A DNA stretch of 64,000 nucleotides from Dehalococcoidia bacterium (GCA_034434875.1 DAOTYJ010000142.1:3926-67925); one strand, 5' to 3'. Counted from the first letter of the stretch, positions 15,447 to 42,723 are shown. Notes: generated by a model from the letters alone, not told the origin. Numbers and translations are program-made.

Positions 15447-17219
15447 ATGCTACTGGAACTGCGCATCCGGGATTTTGCCATCATCGACCGGCTGGACTTA
15501 GAGTTCGGCCCCGGCCTCACCCTGCTCACCGGCGAAACCGGGGCCGGAAAAAGCATCATCATCGACGCCCTCGCCCTGGTCCTGGGCGACCGGGCCGACC
15601 CGGCCCTGGTCCGGGCCGGCGCCCCCCAGGCCGCCGTCGAGGCCGTCTTCGACCTGAACGGCGCCCCGCCCGAAATTGCCCGGCGGCTGGCCGAACTCGG
15701 CTTCGAGGCCGAAGACGGCCTGCTCATCCTGCGCCGGGAGGTTCAGACCGGGGGCCGCAGCCTGGGCCGCCTCAACGGCCGGACGGTCCCGGCCTCGGTC
15801 CTTCAGCAGGTCGGCCGCCGCCTCGTCGACATCCACGGCCAGACCGAAAACCTCTCCCTCCTGCGGCCGGCCGAACAGCTGGAGCTCCTCGACCGCTACG
15901 GCGGCCTGGAACCGGCCCGCCGGGAATTTGCCGGCCTCGTCCAGCGCTACCGGCGGCTCCGGGCCGAAATCGACGGCCTGCGCCAGACCCTGGCCGACCG
16001 GGACCGGCGGCTGGAGCTTTTAGGGTTCCAGGTCAACGAGATCCGGTCGGCCAGGCTCCAGCCCGGGGAGGAGGAGCGGCTGAGCGAGGAGCACCGGCGG
16101 CTGAGCAACGCCGAGGAGGTCCGCCGGCGGGCCGAGGCCGCCTACGCCGCCCTCCGCCAGGGCCGGCCCGGCCGCCCCCCAGCCCTGGACCTGCTGGCCG
16201 AGGCCGCCCTGGAGCTTAAGGCCCTGGTTGAATTCGACCGGGGGCTGGAGGCTTACCTTTCGGAGCTTACGGACGTTGCCGAGCGGCTGGCCGACCTGGC
16301 CCGGGCCCTCCGGGCCTACGCCGAAGGCGTCGAGGCCGACCCGGCCCGGCTGGCCGAGGTGGAGGAGCGGCTTAAGCTTATCGACCGGCTCAAGCGCAAA
16401 TACGGCCCGACGGTGGCCGACATCCTGGCCTACGCCGAGAAGGCCGAGGCCGAGCTGGCGCAGACCCTCACCGGGGAAGAACGACTGGCCGAACTGGAGG
16501 CCGAGCTGGCCGAGCTTCGGGCCGAGCTGGGCCGCCGGGCCGGGGAGCTTTCCCGGCGCCGTCGGGAGGCGGCCCGGCGGCTGGAGGCGGCGGTGGGTTC
16601 GGAGCTTGCAGCCTTAAAACTGGGCCACACCCGCTTCCAGGTGGGCTTTGGGACCGACCCTGCCCCCGCAGGCGAGGGCCTCCCCGTCGAGGGGGGCGCG
16701 GCCGCCTTCGACCCCACCGGCATCGACCGGGTCGAATTTCTGGTGGCCACCAACCCGGGCGAGCCCCTCCGCCCCCTGGCCAGGGTTGCCAGCGGCGGGG
16801 AGACCGCCCGGCTGATGCTGGCCCTTAAGGTCGTCCTGGCCGAGGCCGACCCGGTGCCCACCCTGGTCTTCGACGAGGTCGACGTCGGGGTTGGGGGCCG
16901 CAGCGGGCAGGTGGTGGGCGAGACCCTCTGGCGGCTCGGCCGCCACCACCAGGTCCTGTGCGTCACCCACCTGCCCCAGGTGGCCGCCTTCGCCGACGAC
17001 CACCTGGCCGTGGGCAAAGAGCTTGCCCAGGGCCGGGCGGTGGTGCGGGTCCGGCGGCTCGCCGAGGCCGAGCGGGTGGCCGAGCTTGCCGCCATGCTCG
17101 GGGGCGATACGGCGGTCAACCGCCGCAGTGCCGGGGAACTGCTCGCCCTCGCCCGGGAGTATAAAGAGCGGCTGGCCGGGGCCGGCCGGACCGCCCACCA
17201 GCTCCCCCTCAGCCGTTAA
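15447..17219 (+). CDS. recN: DNA repair protein RecN
   Basis: LTGETGAGKS, IHGQ, ASGGE, FDEVDVGVGG, CVTHLPQVAA. Confidence 0.97.
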   Translation: MLLELRIRDFAIIDRLDLEFGPGLTLLTGETGAGKSIIIDALALVLGDRADPALVRAGAPQAAVEAVFDLNGAPPEIARRLAELGFEAEDGLLILRREVQTGGRSLGRLNGRTVPASVLQQVGRRLVDIHGQTENLSLLRPAEQLELLDRYGGLEPARREFAGLVQRYRRLRAEIDGLRQTLADRDRRLELLGFQVNEIRSARLQPGEEERLSEEHRRLSNAEEVRRRAEAAYAALRQGRPGRPPALDLLAEAALELKALVEFDRGLEAYLSELTDVAERLADLARALRAYAEGVEADPARLAEVEERLKLIDRLKRKYGPTVADILAYAEKAEAELAQTLTGEERLAELEAELAELRAELGRRAGELSRRRREAARRLEAAVGSELAALKLGHTRFQVGFGTDPAPAGEGLPVEGGAAAFDPTGIDRVEFLVATNPGEPLRPLARVASGGETARLMLALKVVLAEADPVPTLVFDEVDVGVGGRSGQVVGETLWRLGRHHQVLCVTHLPQVAAFADDHLAVGKELAQGRAVVRVRRLAEAERVAELAAMLGGDTAVNRRSAGELLALAREYKERLAGAGRTAHQLPLSR

Positions 17220-20200
17220 GGGGAACGTCTTCCAGCCGGAGGGAGAAGAGCCGGCTTACGCCTTCGGGGGTCAGGCTCAGGCCGAAGAGGGCCCCGGCCC
17301 GCTCCATGGTGGGCCGGCTGTGGGTGACCACCACGAACTGGGTCCGGTCGGCAAACTCCCCAAGGAGCCGGGCGAACTTCTCCAGCCGGGCCTCATCCAG
17401 GGCGGCGTCGGCCTCATCCAGCAGGCAGAGGGGGGTTGGGCCCAGCCCCAGGAAGGCCAGCACCAGGGCGAGGGTAACCAGTGTCCGCTCGCCCCCGGAG
17501 AGGGCCCCCGGACCGTCGACCCGACGGCCGGGAAGCCTTACCGCCAGCTCCAGGCCGGACCGCTCGTCCGAAGGGTCGTCGGTCAGGGTCAGCCGACCCG
17601 AGCCGCCCCCAAAAAGCTCCCGGACCATCCGGTCGAACCCGGCCGAAAGCTCCCGCACCAGCCGCCGGAAGCGGCCGTCCAGCTCGGCCTCCAGCCGCCG
17701 GACCCCCCGCAGCAGCTCGGCCCGGGCCGCCTCGGCGTCGGCGATTTCGGCCTCTAACCTTTCGACTTCGGCCCGCTCCCGTTCGTATTCGGCCTCGGCC
17801 AGGGGATTTACCGGACCCAACTGCTTTAGCTCGGCCTCAACCCGCCGCAGCTCCCGCCCCAGCCCGGCCGGGTCCCCCTCGGGCAACCCCGTCAGCCCGA
17901 CGAGCTTCTCCGGGTCGAAGCCCTCGGCCCCCAGCCGACCGGCCAGCTCGGCCAGGGCCTCCCGGGCCGCCCGAACCTTGGCCTCGGCTTCGGCCGCCAG
18001 CCGGGTCCGGGCCTCCAGCCCCCGGCGGGCCTCTACCAGCTCTCGGTCAAGGCCGTCCAGGGCCCGCCGCCAATTTTCGGCTTCCGACCGGGCCCGGGCG
18101 AGGGCCTCCCGCCGCCTCTCCACTTCGGCCGCAAGCTCCGGAATCTTTAAGTTAAGGTCCCCAAGCTCGGCCTCAAGGCGGGAAAGTTCGGCGGCCAGGC
18201 CCTGGCGGGCCCCGGTAAGCTCGGCCCGGCGGCCTTCGAGGGTCTTGAGCCGCCCTTGAAGCTCCTGGGTCCGGCCGAGGGCGGCCCGCCGCCCCTCCCG
18301 GAGACGGTTAAGCCGGGCCTCGGCCGCCCCCAGCGCCCGGCGAACCCGGCCGGCCACCTCCCGGGCCCGGGCCGCCCGCCGGGCCGCCTCCAGGGGTTCG
18401 GCCTGCCCGGAAGGCCAGGCCGGGGCCGAAAGCCCGGCCCGAACCTTTCGGAGTTCGGCCCGCAGCCTGCTAACCTCCCCCAGCAGCCGGCGCCGGTCGG
18501 TCAGAAGCCGCCCCCGGCGGGCCCGGGCGGCCTCCGCCTCGGCCCGGGCCTGGGCCAACCGGCCCCGGGCCCGGGCCAGCTCGGCCCCCACGGCCTTAAG
18601 CCGGGCCGCAAGCTCCCCGATTTCGGCCGAGACCCGGGCGGCCTCCTCATCCAGGGCCTTAAGCTCGGCTTCCAAACGCCGGACCTCCCCGACCAGGGCC
18701 CGCCGCCGGGCCTCGGCTTCGACGGCCCGCCCATCCCCGGCCGGAAGGACCAGCCCGTTGGGATGCCAGAGAACGCCCCGGACCCAGAGGACCCGGCCGG
18801 GCCAGAGGCCCTCCCGCCAGACCTGCCAGGCCACCGCCGCCGAATCCACCACCAGCACATCCCCCAGCAGCCCCTCCAGCCAGGGGCGGTCGTCCTCGGC
18901 CGCCTCGATGAGGTCGACCAGGCGGCCCAGAATCCCGGCCCGGGCCGGGGGCTCCGGCCAGGCCGGGGGCCCGGCCGGCCGGGGAATCACCAGGGGCCCG
19001 GCGGGGGTCTGGCCGTCGTCCGGCGGGTTGAAGACGACCCGGGCCTCGGCGGCCGGACCCAGGGCCAGCCCCAGGCCGGCCGTAAGCTCGGCCGGCCACC
19101 GGATCCGGCCCAGCAGGCGGCCGTCGCCGGCCCCTTCGGCCCGCCCACCCAGGGCCTTTAAGGCGGCCCGCTGCCGCCCCAGCTCGGCCTCCAGGTGCTG
19201 ACGGCGGCGCTTAAGCTCCCCCAGGCCGGCCCGGGCCGCCCCGAGTTTTTCGTTAAGCTCGGCTTCGGCCGCCTCCAGCTCACCAACCGTGGCGGCCAGC
19301 CGGTCCGGGTCGGCCCCGGCGGCCGGGTCCGCCCCCAGGCTCAGCAGGCCGGCCCGGACCTCGGCCAGGGAGCGGCGGGCGGCCTCGAGGCGGGCCGAAA
19401 GGTCGGCCTCGGCCCGGCGGAGGCGGGCCTCCCGGGCGGCCAGCTCCTCGGCCCGGCGGCGGGCTTCGGCGGCCGCGGCGGTCAGCTCCTCGGCCCGGGC
19501 CGCAATTCGGGGTAGCCACCCCCGGAGCCGACCCACCCGGGCCTCCCAGGCCGCCAGCTCCCGGTCGAAGGCCCTAAGTTCGGCCTCGGCCCGGCCAAGC
19601 TCGTCCGCCAGCCGGCGGCCCTCGGCGTCCCCGGCGGCCTGGGCCTGCTCCAGCTCGGCCAGCCGGGCCCGGCCCCGCCCCAGCCGGTCCGCGAGGTCCT
19701 CCCGCCGGCGGAGGGCCCGGCCCAGCTCGGCCTCGGCGGCCTCCAGGGCCTCCCGGGCCTGCCGGACCCCGAGCTCGGCCTGCTCGGCCCGGGCCTTGAG
19801 CTCCCGGCCCCGGGCCTCCAGGTCGGCCAGCCCCCTGCCGGCGGCCTCCAGGGAGGCCCGGGCCGATTCCAGGGCGGCCTCGGCCTCCCGGACCCGCCGG
19901 TGCCGCTCCAGCCATTCCTGCCGCCGAATGGCCGCCAGCAGGGCGGTCCGGGTGGACTCTAAGCTTTGCCAGGCCCGCCAGGCCTCGGCCTGCCGGCCCA
20001 AAGCCTCCAGGCGGGGCCGGCGCTCGGCCAGCCGGTCCTTCAGCCGGGCAAGGTCGGCGGCGGCCGTCTCCAGGTGGGCGGCGGCCTCGGCCAGCTCCTG
20101 CCGGTAAAAGGCCAGCCCCACCGAGGCTTCCAGAAGCTGGCGCCGCTCCACCGGCCGCAGGCTGAGCCAGCGGTCGGCGGCCCCCTGGGTCACCAGCCAG

Positions 20201-20607
20201 GGGCCGTCGGGGCCGAGGCCGTGGGCGGCCAGGGCCTCCAGGTAGTCCCGCTGGCGAACCGGCCGGCCGTTCACCAGGTATTCGTGGTCGCCGGAGCGGT
20301 GGACCCGGCGGCAGAAGACCGCCTCCTCGCCCCCGGCGTCGGCCAGGGTGATTTCCACCTCCGCCAGCCCGGCCGGGGCCCGGCCGGGGCCGCCGGCAAA
20401 AACGGCCTCCTCCCAGCGGCCGAGGCGGAGCCGGCGGGGATTGGTCTCCCCCAGGGCGAACCGGACCGCCTCCACCAGGTTGCTCTTGCCCGAGCCGTTC
20501 GGCCCGACCAGGGCCACCACCGGGGCGACCAGCTCCACCTCCGTCGGGTCGGCGAAGGTCTTAAAGCCCCGCAGGCGCAGGCGGCGAAGCCGGAAAGGGC
20601 TGCCCAT
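17209..20607 (-). CDS. smc: Chromosome segregation protein SMC
   Basis: GPNGSGKSN, long coiled coils, [20 protein letters not shown]; downstream of rnc. Confidence 0.9.
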
Positions 20608-25695: not shown

Positions 25696-26553
25696 TTACT
25701 GCTTGGGGGTTTCGGCCTCCGGCCCCTTGTAGGTCAGCACCCGGCCCCAGGTGCTCATGGTGCCCCAGATCCCGGAGCGCAGGCACTCCAGCTCCACGAT
25801 CTGGGAGTGGTCGACAAAGAGGTTGACTTCCGGCCCGAAGTTTTTAATATACCAGCTGAAGACGGCCGGGTCGGCGGCCTCGAACATCAGGTGCTCCAGG
25901 CCGATGCCGTCGATGAGCCTGGCCACGATGTCGGTTCGCCACTGCCGGACGCTTTCGGTTATCCCCTCCGACTCGACCATGATGAGCTCGACCCCCAGGT
26001 CCAGGTACCGTTTGGCCATCCGGATGGCCACCATCGGGTCCATAACCCCCTCGGCGGCCAGCTCCTCGGCGGCGGTGGCCCCGCCGGCCCCGAACTGAAC
26101 CCCCACCTCCGGCTTGACCTTCAGGCCGAACTGCATCACCCGCTCGGCCAGCCGCACCAGGTCGTCTTCGGGGATGGTGATAAAGCCCCGGGAGATTTCG
26201 ACGATATCGAACCCGAGCATCCGGCACTCTTCTAAGTACTGGTCCACCAGATCGGGGCCGTAGCGGAGGACCGTCTCGATAAAGCCCCCGGTGGAGACCC
26301 GGACGTCGTACTCGTGGCAGAGGTCGATGATCTCCTTTACGGCCCGGCGGGGCATCAGGGCAAAGGAGCCGCCGGCAAACTTTAAAATATCCACGTATTC
26401 GCCGACGGTCGAAAGGATGTCTTCCAGGTACCGGCGGCCCATGGGGGTATAATACGGCCCCCGGATCTCGGTTATGCCCCGGGTGCGGGGCTTGCGCTGG
26501 CGGCGGTTAACGGGGATAAACTCGCAACAGCGGCCGGAAAGCCTTAGGTCCAC
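25696..26553 (-). CDS. comA: Phosphosulfolactate synthase (ComA) family protein
   Basis: KPRTRGITE, YVDILKFAGGS, VEISRG, KPEVG, IMVESEG, LMFEA; GTG start behind GGAGG. Confidence 0.85.
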   Translation of the reverse strand: MDLRLSGRCCEFIPVNRRQRKPRTRGITEIRGPYYTPMGRRYLEDILSTVGEYVDILKFAGGSFALMPRRAVKEIIDLCHEYDVRVSTGGFIETVLRYGPDLVDQYLEECRMLGFDIVEISRGFITIPEDDLVRLAERVMQFGLKVKPEVGVQFGAGGATAAEELAAEGVMDPMVAIRMAKRYLDLGVELIMVESEGITESVRQWRTDIVARLIDGIGLEHLMFEAADPAVFSWYIKNFGPEVNLFVDHSQIVELECLRSGIWGTMSTWGRVLTYKGPEAETPKQ

Positions 26554-26675
26554 GGGCAAAACCTCCCCTTTAAAGATGGCCACACCAGGAGCTTAACACG
26601 GCCCGAACCCCAAGATACAACCAAAGACCATAAGGCTTTGTCGGTGCGCACGGCCGTGCGCCCCCTCTGCTGGCA

Positions 26676-26719
26676 ACATAAACCGCCGTGGGACAGGCCC
26701 GGAAGGCCTGCCCCACGGC
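26676..26719 (-). terminator. Terminator after the cupredoxin gene
   Basis: 15-bp stem (one G-U pair) with 5-nt loop, followed by GGTTTAT on the minus strand. Confidence 0.65.
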
Positions 26720-26740
26720 CTATTCGGCAAAACTAGTGGG

Positions 26741-27112
26741 TTAATCCTGAACGGTGAGCTGGCCGACCATGCCGGCCTCGGCGTGGCCCGGTTCGATGCA
26801 CTCAATCTTAAAAGTCCCGGTCCGCTGGGGGGTGAACCTGACCGTGGCCGACTGCCCCGGCTGAATCTTGGGGCTCTTAACGTTCAGGTCCGGAACGACC
26901 CAGTCGTGGACGACGGTGCCCCGGTTCTGGATGGTTACCACAACCTCCTGGCCCCGCTTAACGGTCAGGTTGGCCGGCTCGAACTTAAACTCCGTCGCCG
27001 TCACCGTAAGGCCGCCACCCCCACCACCCCCGCCGCCCGGGGCGCAGGCCGAAATCAGGAGCGGCAACACCACCAGCACCGCCGCCACCAGCAGGGGAAT
27101 ACGCACACGCAT
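26741..27112 (-). CDS. Cupredoxin (type 1 blue copper) lipoprotein
   Basis: Lipobox ISAC, Gly8 linker, VHDW, CIEPGHAEAGM (C-x4-H-x4-M). Confidence 0.9.
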   Translation of the reverse strand: MRVRIPLLVAAVLVVLPLLISACAPGGGGGGGGGLTVTATEFKFEPANLTVKRGQEVVVTIQNRGTVVHDWVVPDLNVKSPKIQPGQSATVRFTPQRTGTFKIECIEPGHAEAGMVGQLTVQD

Positions 27113-27126
27113 GCCAAACCTCCCTT

Positions 27127-27157
27127 AAGTGATAATTTTCACAATTAATTTTAGCAC
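27127..27157 (-). promoter_or_regulatory. Extended -10 promoter with a Rex-like operator over the start site
   Basis: TG-C-TAAAAT on the minus strand (27156-27148); AAGTGAT-AATT-TTCACAA at 27127-27144 versus Rex consensus TTGTGAA-N4-TTCACAA. Confidence 0.6.
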
Positions 27158-27195
27158 CGGCCCTTTCCCTTTGGCTTCCGCCCTCACCTTCCTTT

Positions 27196-27726
27196 CTAGC
27201 GGCCCTGCAAGGACCGGATGAAGGCTACCAGGGCCCAGCGGTCCGATTCGGAGATCAAATTGCGCCAGGGGGGCATGTAGCGGGTTCCGTCCCGCTCGAC
27301 CCCGTTGGTAATGTACCAGAAGAGCTCGCCGTCGGTCCGGCCCAGGACCGGCTCGGCCGTAAGGTCCGCCGGCAGGGGCTTCTGGGCGGCCCGGAAGTAG
27401 GCGGCGATGATGCCGTTGCCCTTGCCCTGCTCCCCGTGGCAGGCCGCGCAGTTAACCAGAAAGACCTGCCGGCCCCGGTCCACCGTCTGCTGGGTCCGGG
27501 GCAGGGGGTTGGTCAAGTTCCGGGCCTGCTCCAGGGTGTAGTCCACCTCCCGGCCGGTTATGGGAACCGCCCCCGGCGGCGGGCTCAGCCGGGGCGGCTC
27601 CTGCCGCTTGTAGCTCCCCTGGTAGTGCATCTCATTGAAGATATCCAGGGGGTAACTGCCCGGTAGGCAGGCCGTAGCCAGCAGGAGAAGGGGTATCAGG
27701 CCGAAAAGAATCCGGGCCCGGCCCAT
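27196..27726 (-). CDS. actE: ACIII monoheme cytochrome c lipoprotein (ActE-like)
   Basis: Lipobox ATAC, EMHYQ, RPPGAVP-like PPPGAVP, CAACHG. Confidence 0.87.
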   Translation of the reverse strand: MGRARILFGLIPLLLLATACLPGSYPLDIFNEMHYQGSYKRQEPPRLSPPPGAVPITGREVDYTLEQARNLTNPLPRTQQTVDRGRQVFLVNCAACHGEQGKGNGIIAAYFRAAQKPLPADLTAEPVLGRTDGELFWYITNGVERDGTRYMPPWRNLISESDRWALVAFIRSLQGR

Positions 27727-27727
27727 C

Positions 27728-28270
27728 TCAACTCCCCCTCGGCGGCCCGGCGACGACGTCGGCGGCCCCGGCGTCCCGCATGACCCGCTCCACCACCGGC
27801 ACCTTATCCGAGGTGGTCGAAACCACCACGCCCACGTAGCCCTCGCTTATGCGGGGGTCGTAAAGGCCGACGCCGAAGGACGGCAGCCTCGACTCAAAGA
27901 GGATCCCCAGGATGGTAAACAGGATCGCCCCCAGCATCGTCCCCTCGTACATGACGATGAGCATGGCCGGGATGGCGATTACCGGCTTGCCGTGGGTGAT
28001 GAGGGGGTAGGCCATCTGGGTCCCGACGGTGAGGAGCAGGCCCACCGAAAAGCCGCAGAGGGCCCCGGCGATGGGGAAAATATAGAGCCGGTGGGCGACG
28101 GGCTTCTCCCCGAAGGCCCCCTCCGGGTAAGGCGAGCTGGTAAGCACGTCGAAGTCGTCGGGGGTTATTCCGGCCTTCTCCCCCAGCTCGTCCAGGGCCT
28201 CGGCGGCGGCCTCGGCGGTGGGGAAAATTCCGAGCAAACTCTGCCGTTGGGCAACAACCATCTTTACCAC
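27728..28270 (-). CDS. actD: ACIII subunit ActD (DUF3341)
   Basis: SSPYPEG, two TM segments, YPLITHGKP, MYEGTML, YDPRIS. Confidence 0.87.
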   Translation of the reverse strand: MVKMVVAQRQSLLGIFPTAEAAAEALDELGEKAGITPDDFDVLTSSPYPEGAFGEKPVAHRLYIFPIAGALCGFSVGLLLTVGTQMAYPLITHGKPVIAIPAMLIVMYEGTMLGAILFTILGILFESRLPSFGVGLYDPRISEGYVGVVVSTTSDKVPVVERVMRDAGAADVVAGPPRGS

Positions 28271-28271
28271 C

Positions 28272-29642
28272 TCACTCGCGGATTACTCCGGGCACGGTCA
28301 CCTTGCCCACCTTGACCTCGGCGGCAAAGACCTGGCTCTCCTTCTGCTCGTAAATGGGGATGATGGGGAAGATTTTCGCAAACAGGAAGACCCCCAGGGC
28401 TACCAGCCCAAAGGACCCGATCACCAGGCCCCATTCGGGAAGCTGGGGCTGGTAGGTGCTCCAGCTGAACTGCAACACCTGCTTGTACTGAAGGGCGGGG
28501 ACGATGAGGATATACCGCTCCAGCCACATCCCGATGTTTATCAAGACCGACGTCAAAAACATCATCGTTACACTGCGCCGCACCGACCGCATCATCAGCA
28601 GGGGCACCGGCAGAATATACGCCGTAAGCAGGAAGATAACGAACAGGGCGTTAAAGGGCCACTCGAAGATCCTCGCCTGCCAGATCTTGACCTCGGTCTC
28701 TTCCCGGGCGTAAAGCCCGAAGATGAAATCCAGCAGGAAGAAATAGAACCAGGCGTTGCCCACCACCAGCAGCAGCCGGCCCAGGGCGTCAAAGTGGTCG
28801 GGCCGGATGTAATTATGCAGTTTAAACATAAAGCGCAGGATGGCCATCAGGGTGGCCACGGCCGCAACCCCCGACCAGACGGCCCCGATGACGAAGTAGG
28901 GCGCAAAGACGGTGGAGTGCCAGCCCGGAACCAGGGCCATGGCGAAGTCGAAGGAGACGATGCTGTGGACCGAGACGAAGACCGGCAAGATCAGGCCCGA
29001 AAGAAGGATTCCGGCCAGGGTCTGGAGCCGCCACTGGCGGGGATTCCCCCGCCACCCCAGGGCGAGGATGCCGTAGAAGGTCCGCCGCCAGCCGGTGCTC
29101 CGGTCCCGGGCCACGGCCAGGTCGGGGATGAGCACCGAGTAGATAAACAGACTGCTTCCCGTCAGGTAGGTGAAGATGGCGCTCGGGTCCCAGATGAGGG
29201 GCGAGCGGACGTTGGGCCAGATGCCCCGGAAAAAGTCGTAGGGAAAGACCCAGTAGATCACCCGCCAGAACCGCCCCACGTGGACGGCCGGGTGGAGGGC
29301 GGCGGTGGCCAGGGCAAACACCGTTAAAACCTCGGCCGCCCGGGTCACCGGCCGGCGCCACTCGGCCTGGGTAAGCCTCAAGATGGCCGAGATCATCACC
29401 CCGGCGTGGCTTATCCCGACCCAGAAAACGAAGTTGGTGATCTCAAAGGCCCACATCACCGGCCAGTTCTCCCCCCAGACCCCCACCCCGGTGGCGATGA
29501 GGTAGACCACCGCGACGAAGCCGGCCCCGAAGACCAGCCCCAGCAGCATGAGCACCCCCCAGAACCAGATGGGGGTGTGCAGGACGAAATCTAAAAGCTC
29601 CCGGTTGATCTGCCGGTCGGATAAGACGGGTCGCTCTTGCAT
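28272..29642 (-). CDS. actC: ACIII quinol-binding NrfD-family subunit ActC
   Basis: WAFEITNFVFWVGISHAG, HVGRFW, SPLIWD, VSVHSIVSFDFA, PGWHST. Confidence 0.92.
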   Translation of the reverse strand: MQERPVLSDRQINRELLDFVLHTPIWFWGVLMLLGLVFGAGFVAVVYLIATGVGVWGENWPVMWAFEITNFVFWVGISHAGVMISAILRLTQAEWRRPVTRAAEVLTVFALATAALHPAVHVGRFWRVIYWVFPYDFFRGIWPNVRSPLIWDPSAIFTYLTGSSLFIYSVLIPDLAVARDRSTGWRRTFYGILALGWRGNPRQWRLQTLAGILLSGLILPVFVSVHSIVSFDFAMALVPGWHSTVFAPYFVIGAVWSGVAAVATLMAILRFMFKLHNYIRPDHFDALGRLLLVVGNAWFYFFLLDFIFGLYAREETEVKIWQARIFEWPFNALFVIFLLTAYILPVPLLMMRSVRRSVTMMFLTSVLINIGMWLERYILIVPALQYKQVLQFSWSTYQPQLPEWGLVIGSFGLVALGVFLFAKIFPIIPIYEQKESQVFAAEVKVGKVTVPGVIRE

Positions 29643-29648
29643 GGCCCC

Positions 29649-31013
29649 TTACTCCGGTTTGGCAACTACGGTAGCCTCCGTCCGCAGGTAGGGAATCGCC
29701 CGGGAGAGAAGAAGGGCCTGACGCACCTCCCAGAGGGCGAGCAGCGGCACCAGCCGGACGGCCAGAAGGTAAACCAGAACCGCGCCCGAAATCCCCCCGG
29801 CCAAAATCATGATGTCCACCAGGTCGGGGATGTACGGGCCCGGGACCGTTTCGAGCATGTGCTCGAAGACGTCCTCTACCGAAAAGGCGGCGCTGTAAAG
29901 GCGGATCCGGTCGAGGAGAAGCCCAAAGAGGATGCTCAAGGCCACCACCACGTTCCCGCCGATGCTCCGCCGGACGGGGAAAATTAACAGCATAATGAAG
30001 GGTATAAGCCAGACGAAAAGAAACTCAACGATAAAGAGGCCCAGGTACGGCCCCCCGTAAAGGAGGGTGAGCACGGCAATTTCCCGGGGCGTCCGCCCGT
30101 ACCATAGGGTAAGAAATTCGGCATAGTGAAAATACATCCAGAGGAGGGTGAGGGCCAGCATAAGCTTGGACACCCCCCAGAAGGGGTCCACGCTTATATA
30201 CGCCTCCAGCCGGCCGAAGCGCCGGACCAGGGCCATCACCAGGATGGCCGTGGCGCACCCGGCCTGGAGCCCGTCGATCCCGTGCAGGGCCGGGAAGATG
30301 GCCGAATGCCAGCCCGGAACCTGGCTCATGACAAAGTCCGTGGAAAACACCGTGTGGGCGCCCACGTAGGCCATCAGGTAAAAGGCGCTGAGCAAGGTCA
30401 TCCCCTTTTCCAGCACCCGCCACTGCCGGGTGGTTCCCGGCCAGGCCCCCGCCCCGCTTAGGTCCCCTTCGGAGGCCTCTACCATGGCCCGGTCGGGCCG
30501 GGCCGAGAGAAACACCAGCCCGAGGCCGGCTAGGAAGAGGGCCCCCAGAATAACCAGGTTCCAGACCAGGGGGATTCCCAGGGGCGAGTCGAAGTAAAGG
30601 CTCGGCCGGCCGAAGGTTGGGGGCAGGACCAGGGCGGCCGGGATGACCATCAGCACCGAGACGAGGCCGGCCAGGGAGCACATCTCCAGGGCCCGGGCCA
30701 CCGGCCGCCGCCAGTGGCCCTTGGCCAGCCGCCCGGCCACGGCCACCACCGGGGCGGCCTGGAAGGTCGAAAGAATAAAAGCTATCGTCGCCGCAAAGTA
30801 GGCCCAGCCCGCCCGGTGCTCAGTGCCCCCCGAGAGGCGCAGAATAAAGCCCACCACGCCGAGCAGGAAAAGCAGCCCGAAGAAGGCCACCGCCAGGCCG
30901 TAGGCCCCGCCGGGGCGCATCAGCCGCCGGCCGTCGGCCACCACCTGGGCCGGGGGCACGGTTATGACGTGGGGACGGTAGTGGTGTACGGCCCTATGCG
31001 TGTTCCTCGGCAT
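29649..31013 (-). CDS. Second NrfD-family membrane subunit (ActF-like)
   Basis: Paralog of ActC (HWRRPV, STDF, PGWHSA) lacking the HxGR His (reads TFGRP). Confidence 0.78.
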   Translation of the reverse strand: MPRNTHRAVHHYRPHVITVPPAQVVADGRRLMRPGGAYGLAVAFFGLLFLLGVVGFILRLSGGTEHRAGWAYFAATIAFILSTFQAAPVVAVAGRLAKGHWRRPVARALEMCSLAGLVSVLMVIPAALVLPPTFGRPSLYFDSPLGIPLVWNLVILGALFLAGLGLVFLSARPDRAMVEASEGDLSGAGAWPGTTRQWRVLEKGMTLLSAFYLMAYVGAHTVFSTDFVMSQVPGWHSAIFPALHGIDGLQAGCATAILVMALVRRFGRLEAYISVDPFWGVSKLMLALTLLWMYFHYAEFLTLWYGRTPREIAVLTLLYGGPYLGLFIVEFLFVWLIPFIMLLIFPVRRSIGGNVVVALSILFGLLLDRIRLYSAAFSVEDVFEHMLETVPGPYIPDLVDIMILAGGISGAVLVYLLAVRLVPLLALWEVRQALLLSRAIPYLRTEATVVAKPE

Positions 31014-31716
31014 GGGGGTCCACCTTTTTAAGATAGATGACGCCGGGGTCGGTTCCCAGGGACTCCATCACCCGGTAGCGGCGCCGGTCCCGGGCCAGCT
31101 GGGCCGCCCTGGTGGTGGGGTCGGCCAGGTTGCCGAAGACCAGCGCCCCGGTGGGGCAGGCCTGGGCGCAGGCCGGCTGGAACTCCTGGTCCCGGAGCTC
31201 CCGGCCCTCGGCCCGGGCCTTCCGCTCTGCCCGCCGGATCCGCTGGATGCAGAAGGTGCACTTTTCCATGATCCCCCGGCCCCGGACGGTCACGTCCGGA
31301 TTAAGGTAATTGTAATAAGACTCCGGCCAGCGGGCCTCCCAGAAGTTGAACATCCGGGCGTTGTAAGGGCAGTTGATCTGGCAGTAGCGGGTGCCCACGC
31401 ACCGGTTGTAAACCTGCACGTTTAAGCCCTGGGTGTCGTGGTGGGTGGCGTAGACCGGGCAGACGGGCTCGCAGGGGGCGTTGGTGCAGTGCTGGCAGAG
31501 CATCGGCAGAAAGCGGGCCTTTAAATCCGGGTATTCGCTTCCTTCCCAGTAGCGCTCGACCCGGATCCACTCGAAGGCCCGCCGCTGCAAGAAGAGGTCT
31601 TCGGTGTTGATGGGCAGGTTATTCTCCGTCTGGCAGGCCACCACGCAGGCCTGACAGCCCGTACAGCGGTCGAGGTCGACCACCATTCCCCAGCGGACCC
31701 GTTGTTGCTGGACCAT
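30994..31716 (-). CDS. Four-cluster ferredoxin subunit (ActB2/QrcC/NrfC-like)
   Basis: CTGCQAC, CQHC..PC, CVGTRYC (3Fe-4S type), CTFC...PACAQAC. Confidence 0.93.
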   Translation of the reverse strand: MVQQQRVRWGMVVDLDRCTGCQACVVACQTENNLPINTEDLFLQRRAFEWIRVERYWEGSEYPDLKARFLPMLCQHCTNAPCEPVCPVYATHHDTQGLNVQVYNRCVGTRYCQINCPYNARMFNFWEARWPESYYNYLNPDVTVRGRGIMEKCTFCIQRIRRAERKARAEGRELRDQEFQPACAQACPTGALVFGNLADPTTRAAQLARDRRRYRVMESLGTDPGVIYLKKVDPHAEEHA

Positions 31717-31742
31717 AGCCGTTACTCCCCCCGCAAAGGCTC

Positions 31743-33998
31743 CTAACCCCGGGTTACCCGGACGGGCCCCTCGTGCTCGAAGCCGAAGGGCGGCACCGCC
31801 CCCTCGAACTTGACCACCCGCACCCGCCGGCCCGTCCGGACCAGCCGGACCCGGGTGGCGGCGTAGGCCAGCGCCCCCGACTCCTCGTCGGTGAGGGGCG
31901 CCAGAATTCCCAAGACGTTGGCCCCCCGGCCCTGGGCATAGCGGCCGTAGTGGCGCTGGCCCCGGCCCAGGGGCACCGCCACGACCCCCGGGGGCATCCC
32001 CAGGTTGACGTAGACGGGAACCTCAATCCGGCCCACCGGCGACTCCACCGCCACCACGTCCCCCTCGGCCAGGCCCAGCCGGCGGGCGGTCTCGGGGCCG
32101 ATTTCGGCCCAGGTCTGCCAGACCAGGGTGGTTACCGGCTCGGGCACGGCCTGGAGCCACGGCAGGCCCGCCAGCACGCCCCCCGAGGCCACCCCGATGG
32201 GCTCGAAGGGTATGAGCACCAGCGGGTACTCCCGGGCGTCCCCCTGGAAGCGGGCCGCCGGCGGCTGGGCCGGAAGGCTCGGGGGCGTCGGGACCGCCTC
32301 CACGGCCGCGGCCGTATCCCACCAGCCGCCCCGCTGAAGGACCCCGTTCCAGAAGGCCTCAAAATCCACCGCCTGAACCGAGCCCCGGCCCGAGCGGTGG
32401 AGCTGGCGGGCCCCCTCCCGAACCGCCTCCCGCAGGTTCGGCCAGGGAAGCTCGGCCTGAAGCCGCCCCCCCACGGCCCGGGCCAGGCCTAAAAGCACGT
32501 CGAAAAACGAGCGGCTGTCGTAGAAGGGGTTGACGACGGGCTGCTGGAAGCCGACGACCGGGTAGCTGGGGGCCGGGTCGGTGACTTCGTCCCCCCAATC
32601 TTCCAGGTAGGTGTGGGCCGGGAGAACCAGGTCGGCGTAGGCGGCGGTATCGTCGAGGAGGGTCGCAAAGCTGACGATGTACCCGGCCTTGCCCACCACC
32701 TTTTCAAAACCGAGATACTGCAGGTGGTAGACGGGGTCGGCGTCGAAGAGGACCAAAAGCTGGACCGGCCTGGGCCGGCCGGTATCCAGCCGGGAGATGA
32801 GGGCCTGCCACTGGCTTACGGTGGCCGGGTTGGGGGTGTAAGGGACGTCCCCGTAGGGGGGCCTGGCCACCGGGCGGACCGGCCGGCCCAGGCCCACACT
32901 GCCCACCAGGTAGTTGAGGGCGTAGGCCGCCAGCAGGTTGAAGGTGCCGTTGGTGTGGGCCCCGGCCACCCCCCCGGCGACGGCCACCGCCGGCCGGGTC
33001 CGGCCGAAGGCCCGGGCAACCTCCCGGATCCGCTCGGCCGGGACCCCGGTGGCCTCACCCACCAGCTCCGGCCGGAAAGGGTTGAAGGCCGCCGGGCCGG
33101 CCCCGGCCGTAATGGCCTGAACGGCCGCCGGGTTGGCCAGGTTCTCGTTCACCAGCACGTGGGCGATGCTTAGGGCCAGGAGGCCCTCGCTCCCCGGCTT
33201 TACCGCCAGCCACTCGTCGGCGCTGGCCGCCGTGGCGGAGAACCTGGGGTCGACGTGAACCAGGGTTCCCCGGGCCCCGGGCCGTCCCTGCCGAAACTCC
33301 CCGTAGCCCCGGCTGTAGCGGACGGGGGAAACCCAGGTTCCCAGGAAGTCGGCCCCGAAGGAGAGGACGAAATTGGCCTGCTCCAGGGCAAAATCCACCA
33401 GGAAATCCGAGCCGAAGGCCCGGCGCTGGGCGGTTCGCACCACCGTCTCGTCGGGGGTGGCCAGCTGGAGGTGGTCGGCCCCGAGGGCCCGGGCGAACCG
33501 GCGGACGATTTCCGCCCGGTACCCGGTCAGAGGCCCGGTGATCAGGACCACGGTGTTTCCGGCCTGCTGGCCGACCAGGTTCTGGAGGCGCTGGGCGAGC
33601 TCCCGGAGGGCCTCGTCCCAGGAGGCCGGCCGGAACTCGGCCCGGCCCCGGTCGCCGGTCCGGATGAGGGGCCGGGCGACCCGGTCCGGATGGTAGAGGA
33701 GCTGGACCCCGGCCAGCCCCCGGGCGCAGAGCTTGCCCCGGTTCAGGGGGTGGTCGGGGTTGCCCTCAATCTTCTTGGCCCGGCCCTCCATCACCCGGAC
33801 GATGATGCCGCAGCCGGCCCGGCACTGCCGGCAGACCGACGCGTACCAGGCGTCGTCCCCGGCCAGGACGTCCTCGGGGATGCGGGCCGGGCTCTGGATC
33901 TGAAACTCCCTTTCGGGGATGCTGCAGCCGGCAAAGACGACGGCCCCGGCCGCCGACGTGGCGGCGATCTTCATAAAGTCCCGTCGGGTAACCCCCAT
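31743..33998 (-). CDS. Molybdopterin oxidoreductase-fold subunit (ActB1/QrcB-like), Tat lipoprotein
   Basis: TRRDFMK Tat motif, lipobox FAGC, CRQCRAGC...C, IEGNPDHPLNRGKLCARG, SFGADFL. Confidence 0.9.
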   Translation of the reverse strand: MGVTRRDFMKIAATSAAGAVVFAGCSIPEREFQIQSPARIPEDVLAGDDAWYASVCRQCRAGCGIIVRVMEGRAKKIEGNPDHPLNRGKLCARGLAGVQLLYHPDRVARPLIRTGDRGRAEFRPASWDEALRELAQRLQNLVGQQAGNTVVLITGPLTGYRAEIVRRFARALGADHLQLATPDETVVRTAQRRAFGSDFLVDFALEQANFVLSFGADFLGTWVSPVRYSRGYGEFRQGRPGARGTLVHVDPRFSATAASADEWLAVKPGSEGLLALSIAHVLVNENLANPAAVQAITAGAGPAAFNPFRPELVGEATGVPAERIREVARAFGRTRPAVAVAGGVAGAHTNGTFNLLAAYALNYLVGSVGLGRPVRPVARPPYGDVPYTPNPATVSQWQALISRLDTGRPRPVQLLVLFDADPVYHLQYLGFEKVVGKAGYIVSFATLLDDTAAYADLVLPAHTYLEDWGDEVTDPAPSYPVVGFQQPVVNPFYDSRSFFDVLLGLARAVGGRLQAELPWPNLREAVREGARQLHRSGRGSVQAVDFEAFWNGVLQRGGWWDTAAAVEAVPTPPSLPAQPPAARFQGDAREYPLVLIPFEPIGVASGGVLAGLPWLQAVPEPVTTLVWQTWAEIGPETARRLGLAEGDVVAVESPVGRIEVPVYVNLGMPPGVVAVPLGRGQRHYGRYAQGRGANVLGILAPLTDEESGALAYAATRVRLVRTGRRVRVVKFEGAVPPFGFEHEGPVRVTRG

Positions 33999-34010
33999 CG
34001 TTAACCCCTC

Positions 34011-34577
34011 TCAGTAGTGACAGACCCCGCAGTCGGTGGGCCCGTTGTTCTCCCGGTGGCAGTTGACACAGTCGCCCATCTTGAGGGGCCGCACCTGCTG
34101 GACCCCCTCCTTCCCCACGTTTTCGACGGCCCCGTGGCAGGTGGCGCAGGCAAAGCCCCGCTGGATGTGGACCGAGTGGACGAAGAGGACATGGTCCGGG
34201 AGCCGGTGGACCCGGTTCCAGTTAATGGGCTGATTCTGCTGCCAGTAGCTTATGAGCTTCTGGATTTCGGGCCGCTCGGTGGCCACCACCTGGTGGCAGA
34301 ACATGCACTGCTCCACCGCCGGCACCGTCGCGGCCGCCCCGGTGGCCACGTTCCGGTGGCAGAAGGTGCAGTCGAGGCGGGCCACCTGGACGTGGACGTT
34401 GTGGGGAAAGGCGATGGGCTGGGTCACCTGGGGCCGCAGGAAGGCCGGCGGCAGGCCCGCGGCCGAGACGATGACCACCCCGAGAACGGCCAGGGGAATC
34501 AGGGCGGCAACCAGCCCCCCGGCCATCAGCCCCAATCTCAGGATCCGACTCTGCGCACGCCTCATCTGGGCCCCCAA
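34011..34577 (-). CDS. actA: Pentaheme cytochrome c (ActA/QrcA-like)
   Basis: One TM segment, QPIAFPH, five CxxCH motifs, INWNRVHRLPDHV, LKMGDC. Confidence 0.92.
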   Translation of the reverse strand: MGAQMRRAQSRILRLGLMAGGLVAALIPLAVLGVVIVSAAGLPPAFLRPQVTQPIAFPHNVHVQVARLDCTFCHRNVATGAAATVPAVEQCMFCHQVVATERPEIQKLISYWQQNQPINWNRVHRLPDHVLFVHSVHIQRGFACATCHGAVENVGKEGVQQVRPLKMGDCVNCHRENNGPTDCGVCHY

Positions 34578-34586
34578 ACCTTGGGC

Positions 34587-34895
34587 TTAAAAGGCGAACT
34601 TCGGGTAAAACTTAGCGATGACCCCGGGCGCCACCGCAAGGAACTGCACCAGGAAAAAGAGGGCGGCCGCCAGGGCCGCGGCCGCCAGGATATAAAAAAC
34701 CGGCTGAAGCCGGCGGGCCGCGGCCGGGGCCTCACCCGTGGCCAGGAGGGAGGGAATGAACCCAAAACCGATAAGAAAAGCGAAGGCGGCAACGACGGCC
34801 AGAAGCAGGTAAACGGCCAGGTAAGTTATGGCCCGGAAGATCTCGGCCCAGGTCGCCGAATCGATAAAGCCCGGCTGCATGGTCCAAGGGTCCAT
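34587..34895 (-). CDS. Small hypothetical membrane protein, first gene of the act operon
   Basis: About 102 aa, 2-3 hydrophobic segments, GAGG/GGAG RBS, 9 nt before actA. Confidence 0.7.
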   Translation of the reverse strand: MDPWTMQPGFIDSATWAEIFRAITYLAVYLLLAVVAAFAFLIGFGFIPSLLATGEAPAAARRLQPVFYILAAAALAAALFFLVQFLAVAPGVIAKFYPKFAF

Positions 34896-34959
34896 AGCCG
34901 CTCCCACCTCGGTTTACTGGCCCCCATCCGCCCAGACCGGCTGCCCACGGTGCCAGTAA

Positions 34960-34988
34960 AAGATAGTGCAAATTCTCACAAATGTCAA
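34960..34988 (-). promoter_or_regulatory. act operon promoter with a Rex-like operator in the spacer
   Basis: TTGACA-17-TATCTT; TTGTGAG-AATT-TGCACTA at 34981-34964. Confidence 0.7.
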
Positions 34989-35503
34989 CCCGTCCGGAGC
35001 CGCCGGGCCCAGGCCGCCAGGGCCTGGGCGACGTTTTTAAAAGCCACCTTTTCGGGGAGCTCCTCCGGGCCGAACCAGGCCCGGCCGGCCACGTCGTCGG
35101 CCGGCCGGGCCTCCCCCGCTTCGGCCTCGGCCAGGTAGTGGATGTTCAGGGTCGGCTCGCCGCCCGGCCCGTAGCGGTCGGGGAATATTCCCAGCAGGCC
35201 CCGGACCCTTATCTCCAGGCCGGTTTCCTCCCGGACTTCCCGCTTTACGGCCGCAATGGGGTCTTCGTCGGGCTCGATAAATCCTCCCGGCAGGTCCCAG
35301 CAGCCCTCAAAGGGCGGCCGGGCCCGGCGGGCCAGGAGAACCCGGCCGTTCCGGTTGACGACGGCGCTGGCGGTGGGCTTGGGGTTGGGGTAAAAGACGG
35401 CCCCGCAGCGGGCGCACCTTTTCGGCCCGAGGCCGCCGGCGGCCTCAAGCTCCCCCGCGCACCTGGGGCAGTAGCGCCAGGCATCCCAGTAAGGGTCGGC
35501 CAT
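34985..35503 (-). CDS. Nudix hydrolase with N-terminal zinc ribbon
   Basis: YCPRC...CARC, Nudix box GGFIEPDEDPIAAVKREVREETG; TATAAT at 35522-35517. Confidence 0.92.
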   Translation of the reverse strand: MADPYWDAWRYCPRCAGELEAAGGLGPKRCARCGAVFYPNPKPTASAVVNRNGRVLLARRARPPFEGCWDLPGGFIEPDEDPIAAVKREVREETGLEIRVRGLLGIFPDRYGPGGEPTLNIHYLAEAEAGEARPADDVAGRAWFGPEELPEKVAFKNVAQALAAWARRLRTG

Positions 35504-40665: not shown

Positions 40666-41826
40666 TTACCTGACGGCGGTTCCGTCCGGCCGCAGGACAA
40701 ACCAGACTCCGGCCACGTTCTGGCCCCGGGTATCCCCGGGCTGGGCGTCCTGGAACCAGTAGTAGAGGGGCCAGCCGTTGTAGGTCACCTGGAGGGCGCC
40801 GTCGGCCCGGGTGGTAACCCCCAGAAGGTCGGGCCTTACGCCGGGCCCGGCCAGGGGCCGGTCGGTGGTGAGCAGCGGCGGCCAGTTGGCGGCGCAGGTA
40901 CCGTAGCAGTTCGAGGTCGACGTTTCCCGGACGTCCCGGGCGAACATGTAGAGGGTCATACCCCGCTCGTCCACCAGGATGGTGCCCAGGGCCGTGCCGG
41001 CCGCCCTGACGGTGGGCCTGGCGGCCGCCGGCGTAACCACGATGGGCCCGGTCCAGCTCCCGGGCGGGCTGTTATTATAGAAATTGACCCAGGCGTAGCT
41101 TGAGGCCGAGGCCCCCGGGACCTCAACGGTCAACGTATAGGGCCCGACCACCGCCCCACCCCGGATGCCCGAAACGTTGTTCCAGCCGATGCCGCCCTGG
41201 CCGTCCAGGCCGCACTGCCGCCAGTCGGTCCGGTGGGTACCGTACTGACAGAAGAGGAGCCTGGCACCCGCGGGCAGTCGGGCCTTAACCTCGTAGCTGT
41301 AGGTTCGGTCACTGCGGTTAGCCACCAGCATCACGAAGGTTACCCGGTTGCCGGTCTGGGCTGCCCGCATCTCAACGGTTACCGGCGGCCAGCCTGGGGT
41401 AAGAAGGCCGGGGAGGGCAGCAGGGGCGGGCATTGGGGCGGGTGTGGGCACCGGCTGACCCGGGGCCTGAACAACTATCACCCCGGACATGCCCTGGCCG
41501 CCGGGTCCGCCGTGGGGCCGGCAGTAATACGGGTATGTGCCCGGCTGCTGAAAGGTCCGCTGGTAGGAGCCCCCCGGCTGGATGAGGCCCGAATCGAAAC
41601 TGCCGTCGTCGGCCGTAACGGTGTGGGCCACCGGGTCCTGATTTACCCAGACCACCGTTGTCCCCGGGGTAATCGTAATCGTCCGGGGATTAAAGGCAAT
41701 ATTGCGCATCTCAACGGTTATCGGTTGGGCCTCGGCTTTAGGAACGCCGAATTGGGCCGGAACTACCGGCACCATAGCCAGCAGAATCGCCACCAGAACC
41801 ACGAATCGGCTGAAAAGCCTGAGCAT
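40666..41826 (-). CDS. Secreted multidomain protein: cupredoxin, Ig-like middle domain, COG4315/Lipoprotein_15-type repeats
   Basis: Signal peptide, HTVT...YCRPHGGPGGQGM, C-terminal TLYMF..D...CYGTCAANWPP and QVTYNGWPLYY. Confidence 0.85.
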   Translation of the reverse strand: MLRLFSRFVVLVAILLAMVPVVPAQFGVPKAEAQPITVEMRNIAFNPRTITITPGTTVVWVNQDPVAHTVTADDGSFDSGLIQPGGSYQRTFQQPGTYPYYCRPHGGPGGQGMSGVIVVQAPGQPVPTPAPMPAPAALPGLLTPGWPPVTVEMRAAQTGNRVTFVMLVANRSDRTYSYEVKARLPAGARLLFCQYGTHRTDWRQCGLDGQGGIGWNNVSGIRGGAVVGPYTLTVEVPGASASSYAWVNFYNNSPPGSWTGPIVVTPAAARPTVRAAGTALGTILVDERGMTLYMFARDVRETSTSNCYGTCAANWPPLLTTDRPLAGPGVRPDLLGVTTRADGALQVTYNGWPLYYWFQDAQPGDTRGQNVAGVWFVLRPDGTAVR

Positions 41827-41968
41827 TCGTTCCCTCTCCCGTCTCAATTTCTGGGTCGGTATTTCGAGGAATAGTTAACAGTTGCCCCCTTAAGGCTCAC
41901 CTCCTTCCAAGCCGGGCTGTAGTTTCCACCCTAAATACGTCCCAGGGTCCCGGTCGGATTCATCCGGC

Positions 41969-42060: not shown

Positions 42061-42723
42061 GTGACAGGTCTGTTCGGCCGCCTGCTTTTTATTTTGGTCT
42101 GTCTGCTGGCTACGGGGACAGGGGGCGACGTCCCCAGTGCGGCCGCCCGGCTGGCAGTCGAAGTTACGGTTGAGATGCGAGACATCGCGTTTAACCCCCG
42201 GATGGTGACCGTCCCCCCGGGTACCGCTGTGGTCTGGGTTAACCGGGACCCCTTCGACCACACCGTTACGGCCGACGACGGCAGTTTCAACTCCGGTCTT
42301 ATCCCACCAGGGGGTACATTCCGGCTCACGTTTCAGCGGCCGGGGAGGTATCCGTATTACTGTATCCCCCACGGCGGGCCGGGCGGGGTGGGGATGTCGG
42401 GGGTTGTCGTCGTCGGGGCGCCCCAGCCGACGCCCGGGCCGCCCCCGCCGACGCCGGCCCCGCCGGCTCCAACGCCTGTCCCCGTCCGTCCGACGCCCGT
42501 CCCGCCCACACCCACCCCGATCCCCCCGACGCCCACCCCGGAGCCGAGCCCTACCCCCACCCGGACCCCGGTGCCCCCAACCCCAACCTTTACCCCCAGC
42601 CCCACGCCCGCAACGGCCCCACCCGACTCCGGCCCGCCGGCGGGCCTCCTCCTGGGCGGGGCGGCCGCCGTCATCCTGGGGGCGGCCGGCTTCGCCCTCC
42701 GGCGCCTCCTTGGCCGCCGCTAG
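42061..42723 (+). CDS. Surface cupredoxin with Pro/Thr stalk and C-terminal membrane anchor
   Basis: Signal peptide, HTVT...YCIPHGGPGGVGM, PTP repeats, TM segment plus RRLLGRR tail. Confidence 0.87.
   Translation: MTGLFGRLLFILVCLLATGTGGDVPSAAARLAVEVTVEMRDIAFNPRMVTVPPGTAVVWVNRDPFDHTVTADDGSFNSGLIPPGGTFRLTFQRPGRYPYYCIPHGGPGGVGMSGVVVVGAPQPTPGPPPPTPAPPAPTPVPVRPTPVPPTPTPIPPTPTPEPSPTPTRTPVPPTPTFTPSPTPATAPPDSGPPAGLLLGGAAAVILGAAGFALRRLLGRR

Follow-up and report, generated by a model that had tools for sequence, protein, structure and literature searches.

A nine-gene locus in a Dehalococcoidia genome belongs to a widespread Chloroflexota subtype of alternative complex III

We analysed a 64,000-nucleotide stretch of DNA from a Dehalococcoidia bacterium (GCA_034434875.1, DAOTYJ010000142.1:3926-67925; "the window" denotes this whole stretch), which carries nine tightly packed minus-strand genes in the order orfX, actA, B1, B2, N1, actC, actD, actE and a cupredoxin gene. 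A first-pass annotation of the region from 27196 to 34895 had read its gene content and order as orf-actA-B1-B2-(F-like)-C-D-E, and both are borne out on the minus strand. Alternative complex III (ACIII) takes the place of the bc1 complex in many bacteria, and the locus represents a Chloroflexota subtype of this known complex that is both widespread and under-annotated. With a probability of roughly 0.7, we read it as encoding the Chloroflexota form of ACIII, acting as a menaquinol:cupredoxin/cytochrome c oxidoreductase in which the iron-sulfur cluster of B1 is an ancestral relic and provides no new electron port. The genes from orfX to actE, together with the features of B1 that bear on this reading, are listed here with coordinates counted from the first letter of the window:

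34587..34907, minus strand: orfX, 106 amino acids with two predicted transmembrane (hydrophobic) segments, heading the operon
34011..34577, minus strand: actA, membrane-anchored pentaheme cytochrome c with five CxxCH motifs and one N-terminal transmembrane segment
31743..33998, minus strand: actB1 (B1), a separate lipoprotein of the twin-arginine translocation (Tat) type, 751 amino acids, with the fold of a molybdenum-bis(pyranopterin guanine dinucleotide) (Mo-bisPGD) catalytic subunit
33924..33998, minus strand: export signal of B1, twin-arginine TRRDFMK plus lipobox FAGC (Cys25), in a start that reads MGVTRRDFMK...VFAGC
33726..33833, minus strand: FS0-type [4Fe-4S] motif of B1, Cys56/59/63/91, CX2CX3CX27C, aligning with PsrA and ArrA
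33444..33467, minus strand: B1 residues 178-185, QLATPDET, the equivalent of the Mo-ligand loop by alignment to PsrA/ArrA
30994..31716, minus strand: actB2 (B2), four-cluster ferredoxin subunit, 240 amino acids with 15 Cys and no signal peptide
29649..31013, minus strand: N1, second NrfD-like membrane subunit, 454 amino acids, placed before actC, no quinol site
28272..29642, minus strand: actC (N2), predicted quinol-oxidising NrfD-like subunit, 456 amino acids, E = 4.7e-94 to 8k9e_C
27728..28270, minus strand: actD, Pfam PF11821 (ActD) at 88.9 bits against a cut-off of 25.7
27196..27726, minus strand: actE, monoheme cytochrome c with one CxxCH, Pfam Cytochrome_CBB3, lipobox ATAC (Cys20)

The intergenic gaps from orfX to actE range from -20 to +26 nt (up to +83 nt when the cupredoxin gene is counted), with B1 and B2 being separate genes 26 nt apart. 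We scanned one genome per species for relatives of B1, identified at least 547 species genomes that carry one, and fetched and analysed 83 related loci, in which gene content, motifs, conservation and operon distribution were observed directly. All 10 heme cysteines of ActA are invariant (84/84 sequences), as is the CxxCH of ActE with both of its heme cysteines (72/72), while the ActE lipobox Cys20 is present in 38/72. In B2, whose 15 cysteines are arranged 4+4+3+4, as befits one [3Fe-4S] and three [4Fe-4S] clusters, 13 of the 15 are invariant in 79/79 sequences, and the subunit scores 316 bits against the canonical ActB profile over profile positions 722-953. Because B2 has no signal peptide it must travel with B1, as is the case for PsrB or QrcC, so the Tat signal of B1 would be needed with or without a cofactor in B1 itself. 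The quinol-site residues described for ActC of Rhodothermus marinus (H139, S164, D169 and D253; PMC8076601) correspond to His121, Ser147, Asp152 and Asp232 in the window's ActC, each of which is invariant in 77/77 sequences.

The second NrfD-like subunit, N1, is what the first-pass annotation had described as an F-like subunit that precedes ActC, resembles it and lacks the quinol-site His, and this description holds. At the R. marinus ActC columns His139, Ser164 and Asp169, N1 has Leu128, Ile147 and Asn152, respectively, and across its orthologs the His139 column holds W in 47/77 and L in 9/77. N1 keeps the channel residues R114, R119, E122, D191, H247, E338 and R395, of which R119, E122 and E338 are common to N1 and canonical ActF, and R114, D191, H247 and R395 (together with R196 in most orthologs) are ActC-type residues that canonical ActF has lost. 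A greater closeness to ActC than to ActF was also found in a PDB search (2.1e-19 for ActC, 5.6e-11 for ActF) and with hhalign (282 to ActC and 175 to ActF, compared with 111-125 between ActC and ActF); identity between N1 and ActF is 17.4%, vs. 16.3% between ActC and ActF, so that N1 stands slightly nearer to ActF than ActC does. N1 forms its own clade in an unrooted four-group tree of NrfD-like proteins, for which there was no outgroup because the other complex iron-sulfur molybdoenzyme (CISM) loci (L006-L013) contain no NrfD-like gene. The similarities and retained residues fit N1 as a slowly evolving counterpart of ActF, or N1 may have arisen from ActC by a duplication of its own. At E <= 1e-30, N1 is matched by about 65 clusters of 50% identity; among the N1 orthologs that have a database name, 4/7 are called 'hypothetical protein', and most have no recorded Pfam NrfD hit.

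We compared the locus with canonical ACIII (ActABCDEF), represented by the complexes of Rhodothermus marinus (6F0K), Flavobacterium johnsoniae (6BTM), Roseiflexus (6LOD) and Chloroflexus (8K9E). Common to both are an ActA with five hemes, the four-cluster module of B2, ActD, a monoheme ActE, an ActC with the same quinol-site residues and a further NrfD-like subunit that has no quinol site, and the window's ActC is ~37% identical to canonical ActC over trimmed alignment columns. Unlike canonical ACIII, the window has its B subunit split into two genes with FS0 cysteines in B1, has the second NrfD-like gene before actC rather than after actE, and has orfX added at the head. This architecture had been called atypical at first pass; our gene-order survey shows instead that it is typical of its lineage, with the exact order orfX-A-B1-B2-N1-C-D-E present in 67/83 Chloroflexota loci, making the arrangement the norm of a large clade and no oddity of the window's genome. 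Eight more loci (75/83 in total) differ only in that orfX went undetected or a tail gene was lost or doubled, and most of the remaining loci stop at a contig edge. The operon is found, for example, in Thermoflexus hugenholtzii JAD2, in a Sphaerobacter metagenome-assembled genome (MAG) and in SAR202 MAGs, and B1 sequences 94-96% identical to that of the window lie on contigs of Dehalococcoidia and Chloroflexota MAGs. By comparison, the canonical loci, 160 in number and drawn from Rhodothermales, Chloroflexales and Acidobacteriota among other groups, follow the order A-B(fused)-C-D-E-F, with fused ActB in 134 canonical loci.

The survey also returned some individual loci with other features. Two loci fetched with Chloroflexus ActC (L213 and L241) have a separate B1-like open reading frame of 634-661 amino acids and no fused ActB, and one locus of this set reads A-A-A-B1-B2-C-E-F. 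A contig labelled 'Proteobacteria bacterium' (L019) carries a full Chloroflexota-type operon with a B1 that is 54% identical to the window's, which points to either a binning or labelling error or gene transfer.

Parts of this architecture have been described before. A split ActB is accepted in the literature as a variant of ACIII: PMC9386147 credits the split into ActB1 and ActB2 to Refojo 2010, Nitrospirales clusters are reported as actAB1B2CDE with ActB split (PMC12342949), and the iron oxidisers Ferriphaselus, Gallionella and Mariprofundus carry actAB1B2CDEF with a [4Fe-4S] motif of the form CX2CX3CX27C in ActB1 (Kato et al. 2015, PMC4643136). The iron-oxidiser clusters, compared here by published description only, have the same split ActB and identical ActB1 motif spacing as the window; in these and the Nitrospirales clusters actF is last or missing, whereas the window has N1 between B2 and C. 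Sphaerobacter thermophilus was included in earlier surveys of ACIII clusters (PMC8552683). Our literature search, outside of which the Refojo 2010/2013 surveys lay, found no account of the N1-before-C order or of orfX; nor did it turn up a paper in which alternative complex III is named and taken up for SAR202. The first-pass annotation had given prior description of the architecture as grounds for refutation, and for the split ActB and the ActB1 Fe-S motif such a description exists. Because these two headline features were already published, the window adds no new principle.

B1 had been proposed to be a separate Tat lipoprotein that keeps CxxCxxxC...C, and the twin-arginine motif, the lipobox and Cys56/59/63/91 are all seen, with lipobox Cys25 kept in 80/83 orthologs. 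The protein matches PF04879 (Molybdop_Fe4S4), PF00384 (Molybdopterin) and PF01568 (Molydop_binding) in Pfam. Its AlphaFold model, with a predicted local distance difference test (pLDDT) score of 84.4 (~82-88 in the FS0 domain) and a predicted template modelling (pTM) score of 0.85, shows a full four-domain Mo-bisPGD catalytic-subunit fold nearest to ArrA and PsrA, with Foldseek template modelling (TM) scores of 0.78 to ArrA, 0.71 to PsrA and 0.70-0.71 to ActB (0.71 to 6lod_B). The locus thus resembles PsrABC (2VPW) and ArrAB (6CZ7) in the fold of B1, in the FS0 motif, in the Tat signal and in its A-B-C module logic, but differs from them in having no conserved Cys, Sec or Ser Mo ligand and in having cytochromes, ActD, ActE and two membrane subunits.

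By alignment, the four cysteines of the window's B1 match those of FS0 in both PsrA and ArrA, and the first-pass annotation had suggested that the cluster they bind might offer an extra point of electron entry or exit, naming a lack of conservation of these residues beforehand as a refuting outcome. This outcome is largely what the orthologs show. Only 21/83 B1 orthologs (25%) keep all four, the motif being degenerate in 62/83: the FS0 residues read C-C-E-S in 40/83 and C-C-E-G in five, Cys63 and Cys91 are replaced in ~70%, and several orthologs are nearly devoid of FS0 cysteines (YGEG, NGDS, DNLN, AGEH, IGES). In a neighbour-joining tree of B1, the intact motif is confined to deep branches, namely those of the window's clade, of Thermoflexus, of Sphaerobacter and of a Chloroflexia MAG, whereas C-C-E-S characterises a single large clade of derived position and complete losses occur here and there, such that the motif has been lost at least five independent times with the operon intact. 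For instance, six loci (L024, L025, L074, L079, L081 and L091) have a B1 without three or four of the FS0 cysteines and keep the rest of the operon. Repeated loss against an unchanged operon and unchanged B2 and heme cysteines is typical of an ancestral feature that can be dispensed with, and the replacement of Cys63 and Cys91 together with the independent losses makes an essential extra electron port through the B1 cluster unlikely. In the window itself, the motif probably still binds a [4Fe-4S] cluster, as an ancestral trait that is being lost across the family. All four FS0 cysteines are missing from 41/41 canonical ActB sequences, whose fused B1 domain is more degenerate than the window's B1, and the idea of an evolutionary intermediate survives in the form of an earlier stage of cofactor loss: judged by sequence, this is a fair description, as the B1 family documents stages on the way to the full loss seen in canonical ACIII.

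The cupredoxin gene at the end of the operon suggests where the electrons may go. It and the putative boundaries of the transcription unit are as follows:

34960..34988, minus strand: sigma-70-like promoter candidate (TTGACA-17-TATCTT), 5' of orfX, found by motif match
26741..27112, minus strand: gene for a type-1 copper protein, an auracyanin/plastocyanin-like lipoprotein of 123 amino acids, Pfam Cupredoxin_1 and Copper-bind
26685..26719, minus strand: terminator-like hairpin with a 16-bp stem and 12 G-C pairs, after the cupredoxin gene, closing the unit

The promoter candidate is the sole such site in 26400-35300 and, as shuffled sequence averages 0.8, constitutes weak evidence; the hairpin 3' of the cupredoxin gene is the only strong one of the unit, with none that is strong in the gap between actE and the cupredoxin gene. 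Because the promoter candidate lies 5' of orfX and the sole strong hairpin 3' of the cupredoxin gene, the unit would end past the latter, and it probably extends from ~34988 to 26685, slightly beyond the 27196-34895 interval first annotated. The cupredoxin, whose gene starts 83 nt from actE, has as its top PDB match a blue copper domain protein (6kol), with the C-H-M ligand stretch aligned, and is the probable electron acceptor, co-transcribed with the act genes. Auracyanin has been described as an ACIII acceptor in Chloroflexus (PMC3150298).

Homology to solved ACIII structures suggests an electron path, a direction of flow and proton pumping for the complex; in the canonical complex, the electron path, a cofactor-free B1 part and an ActF without a quinol site have been described (PMC5928083). 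Menaquinol would be oxidised in a P-side pocket of ActC formed by His121, Ser147, Asp152 and Asp232, with the electrons then passing to the [3Fe-4S] cluster of B2 and from B2 through the five hemes of membrane-anchored ActA to the heme of ActE. ActE would in turn reduce a soluble or lipid-anchored acceptor, here most likely the co-encoded type-1 copper protein. Two proton paths are predicted, one through ActC and one through N1, the latter lacking the quinol site with its channel residues kept. B1 would export the folded B2 by means of its Tat signal, anchor the periplasmic module to the membrane through its lipid and serve as a scaffold.

Several observations weigh against this interpretation. 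The cupredoxin gene adjoins the operon only in the closest relative (1/83 loci), and no terminal oxidase genes are conserved near the operon in the neighbourhoods of ~80 loci; because cupredoxin adjacency is rare and conserved oxidase genes were not found, both the acceptor and the direction of electron flow are ones that we infer. In addition, B1 is closer in sequence to catalytic ArrA and PsrA than to canonical ActB, its column 183, profile-aligned to the Mo ligand of ArrA, is acidic in 79/83 orthologs, and Cys56 and Cys59 persist in ~90% of orthologs even without Cys63/Cys91, for no obvious reason.

The alternatives that we weighed assign B1 a working cofactor or reverse the direction of flow. 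The FS0 cluster could be functional, as a fifth cluster that extends the FeS2-4 wire of B2 and gives a second electron entry or exit to a periplasmic partner. The function of three of the four Fe-S clusters of ACIII is still an open question, and for FeS2-4, whose role is unknown, a link to an external carrier has been suggested (PMC5928083); the intact motif, which the window shares with diverse deep-branching members, its alignment with FS0 in PsrA and ArrA and the pLDDT of the FS0 domain are all in keeping with such a role. We nonetheless consider it unlikely, given that Cys63 and Cys91 are replaced in most orthologs and all four cysteines are gone in several, that FS0-less members are unchanged in operon content and in B2 and heme cysteines, and that no redox partner gene co-occurs with the intact motif in the neighbourhoods of the loci. 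A restricted version, in which the FS0-intact B1 of the deep branches, that of the window's organism among them, holds a working fifth cluster that joins the FeS2-4 wire to a periplasmic partner or a residual active site, seems to us quite unlikely; if it were true, the series from CCCC through CCES to none would be a stepwise loss of the cofactor that reveals the purpose of the wire. B1 could also be a working molybdo- or tungsto-enzyme with Asp183 as a Nar-type ligand, with quinone or cytochrome c coupled to some periplasmic substrate, for which the full four-domain fold nearest to ArrA/PsrA, the intact FS0 motif of the window and the alignment of Asp183 with the ligand Cys of ArrA all speak. 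The absence of Cys and Ser from QLATPDET that had been noted at first pass is confirmed, the segment holding Asp183 and Thr185, although the ligand-equivalent column is ambiguous: the ArrA ligand Cys aligns to D183, while Cys173 of PsrA is placed on A180, on T185 or in the gap from E184 to T185, with phmmer, MAFFT and profile alignments disagreeing by <=5 residues. Across the 83 B1 orthologs, the candidate Mo-ligand columns have no conserved Cys, Sec or Ser, and column 183 is D, E, S or G even among FS0-intact members, a variability that argues against a metal ligand. Most orthologs are without FS0, so a Mo site in them would be cut off from the wire; the B1 part of canonical ActB is cofactor-free (PMC5928083); and the top NCBIfam model for B1 is QrcB (315.5 bits, cut-off 440, compared with 231 for PhsA), which reportedly lacks a redox cofactor (PMC13059093), making a Mo site unlikely. 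B1 therefore probably carries no molybdenum cofactor, and a working molybdo- or tungsto-enzyme appears very improbable indeed.

The match to QrcB extends to other subunits, since Qrc models are the top NCBIfam matches of A, B1 and B2 (QrcA at 91.8 bits vs. a cut-off of 180 for ActA, QrcC at 263.9 bits vs. 400 for B2), all of them under their equivalog cut-offs; the window's ActC scores 28 against the QrcD model, whose cut-off is 570. Like QrcABCD, the locus has a separate Tat-exported molybdopterin-like B, a separate four-cluster C and a multiheme cytochrome A; unlike Qrc, its ActA has 5 hemes rather than 6, and it has ActD, ActE and a second NrfD-like subunit, all conserved, which Qrc is without. 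For none of ActA, ActB, ActC and ActD did the search of NCBIfam yield a family named after ACIII, and B2 scores higher against ActB (316) than against QrcC (264), so the likeness to Qrc is partly a library effect. What remains of the 'ACIII/Qrc hybrid' of the first-pass annotation is the combination of ACIII-specific ActD, ActE, two NrfD-like subunits and pentaheme ActA with a split, Qrc-like B1 and B2; an origin by recombination between Qrc and ACIII was rejected, as the eight genes are co-conserved across the family and the Qrc matches are probably a library effect. These same matches would also be in keeping with a complex that runs in the manner of Qrc, with periplasmic cytochromes or cupredoxins reducing menaquinone in a reverse, 'uphill' flow, as would the lack of conserved oxidase genes beside the operon and the uphill operation proposed for the ACIII-like clusters of iron oxidisers (PMC4643136). 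However, every Qrc match is under its curated cut-off, and ActD, ActE and the second NrfD-like subunit are features of ACIII that are missing from Qrc. Sphaerobacter and Thermoflexus, which are cultured hosts, and SAR202 are aerobic or microaerophilic heterotrophs, which likewise counts against reverse flow. As the ActC of the window moreover has the quinol-oxidation His of ACIII and not the Asp that QrcD has in its place (PMC8076601), we regard a Qrc-like direction as rather improbable.

The subtype is widespread in Chloroflexota, the abundant ocean clade SAR202 included, and recognising it would improve the annotation of Chloroflexota respiration. Cultured strains with intact vs. decayed B1 motifs would additionally provide a comparative series on whether the Fe-S wire ever led anywhere.

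The gene at the head of the operon, orfX, has no match in Pfam or NCBIfam. A hidden Markov model of orfX matches 83/83 Chloroflexota-type loci and 0/160 canonical ACIII loci (at one of the former, L079, orfX gave no BLAST match), which makes its product a candidate new small subunit specific to Chloroflexota-type ACIII.

Several genes near the operon were observed in passing. Two more cupredoxin genes lie 6-8 kb away, at 40666-41847 (minus strand) and 42061-42723 (plus strand), giving three within 16 kb, and the former also encodes Lipoprotein_15 repeats in fusion. Downstream of actE, ~20/80 loci have genes for cytochrome c maturation of the CcmF/CcmH-like kind, such as at 15649-17658 in L079 and 16080-16697 in L065, but not in the window. 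Just downstream of the respiratory unit is a homolog of (2R)-phospho-3-sulfolactate synthase (ComA; 25696-26583, minus strand, 268 bits), an enzyme not usually seen other than in methanogens and in the pathways of sulfolipid or coenzyme M. Finally, an SMC-like gene of 1132 amino acids (17209-20607, minus strand) includes the G+C peak of the window (GC 0.787 at 18001-20000).

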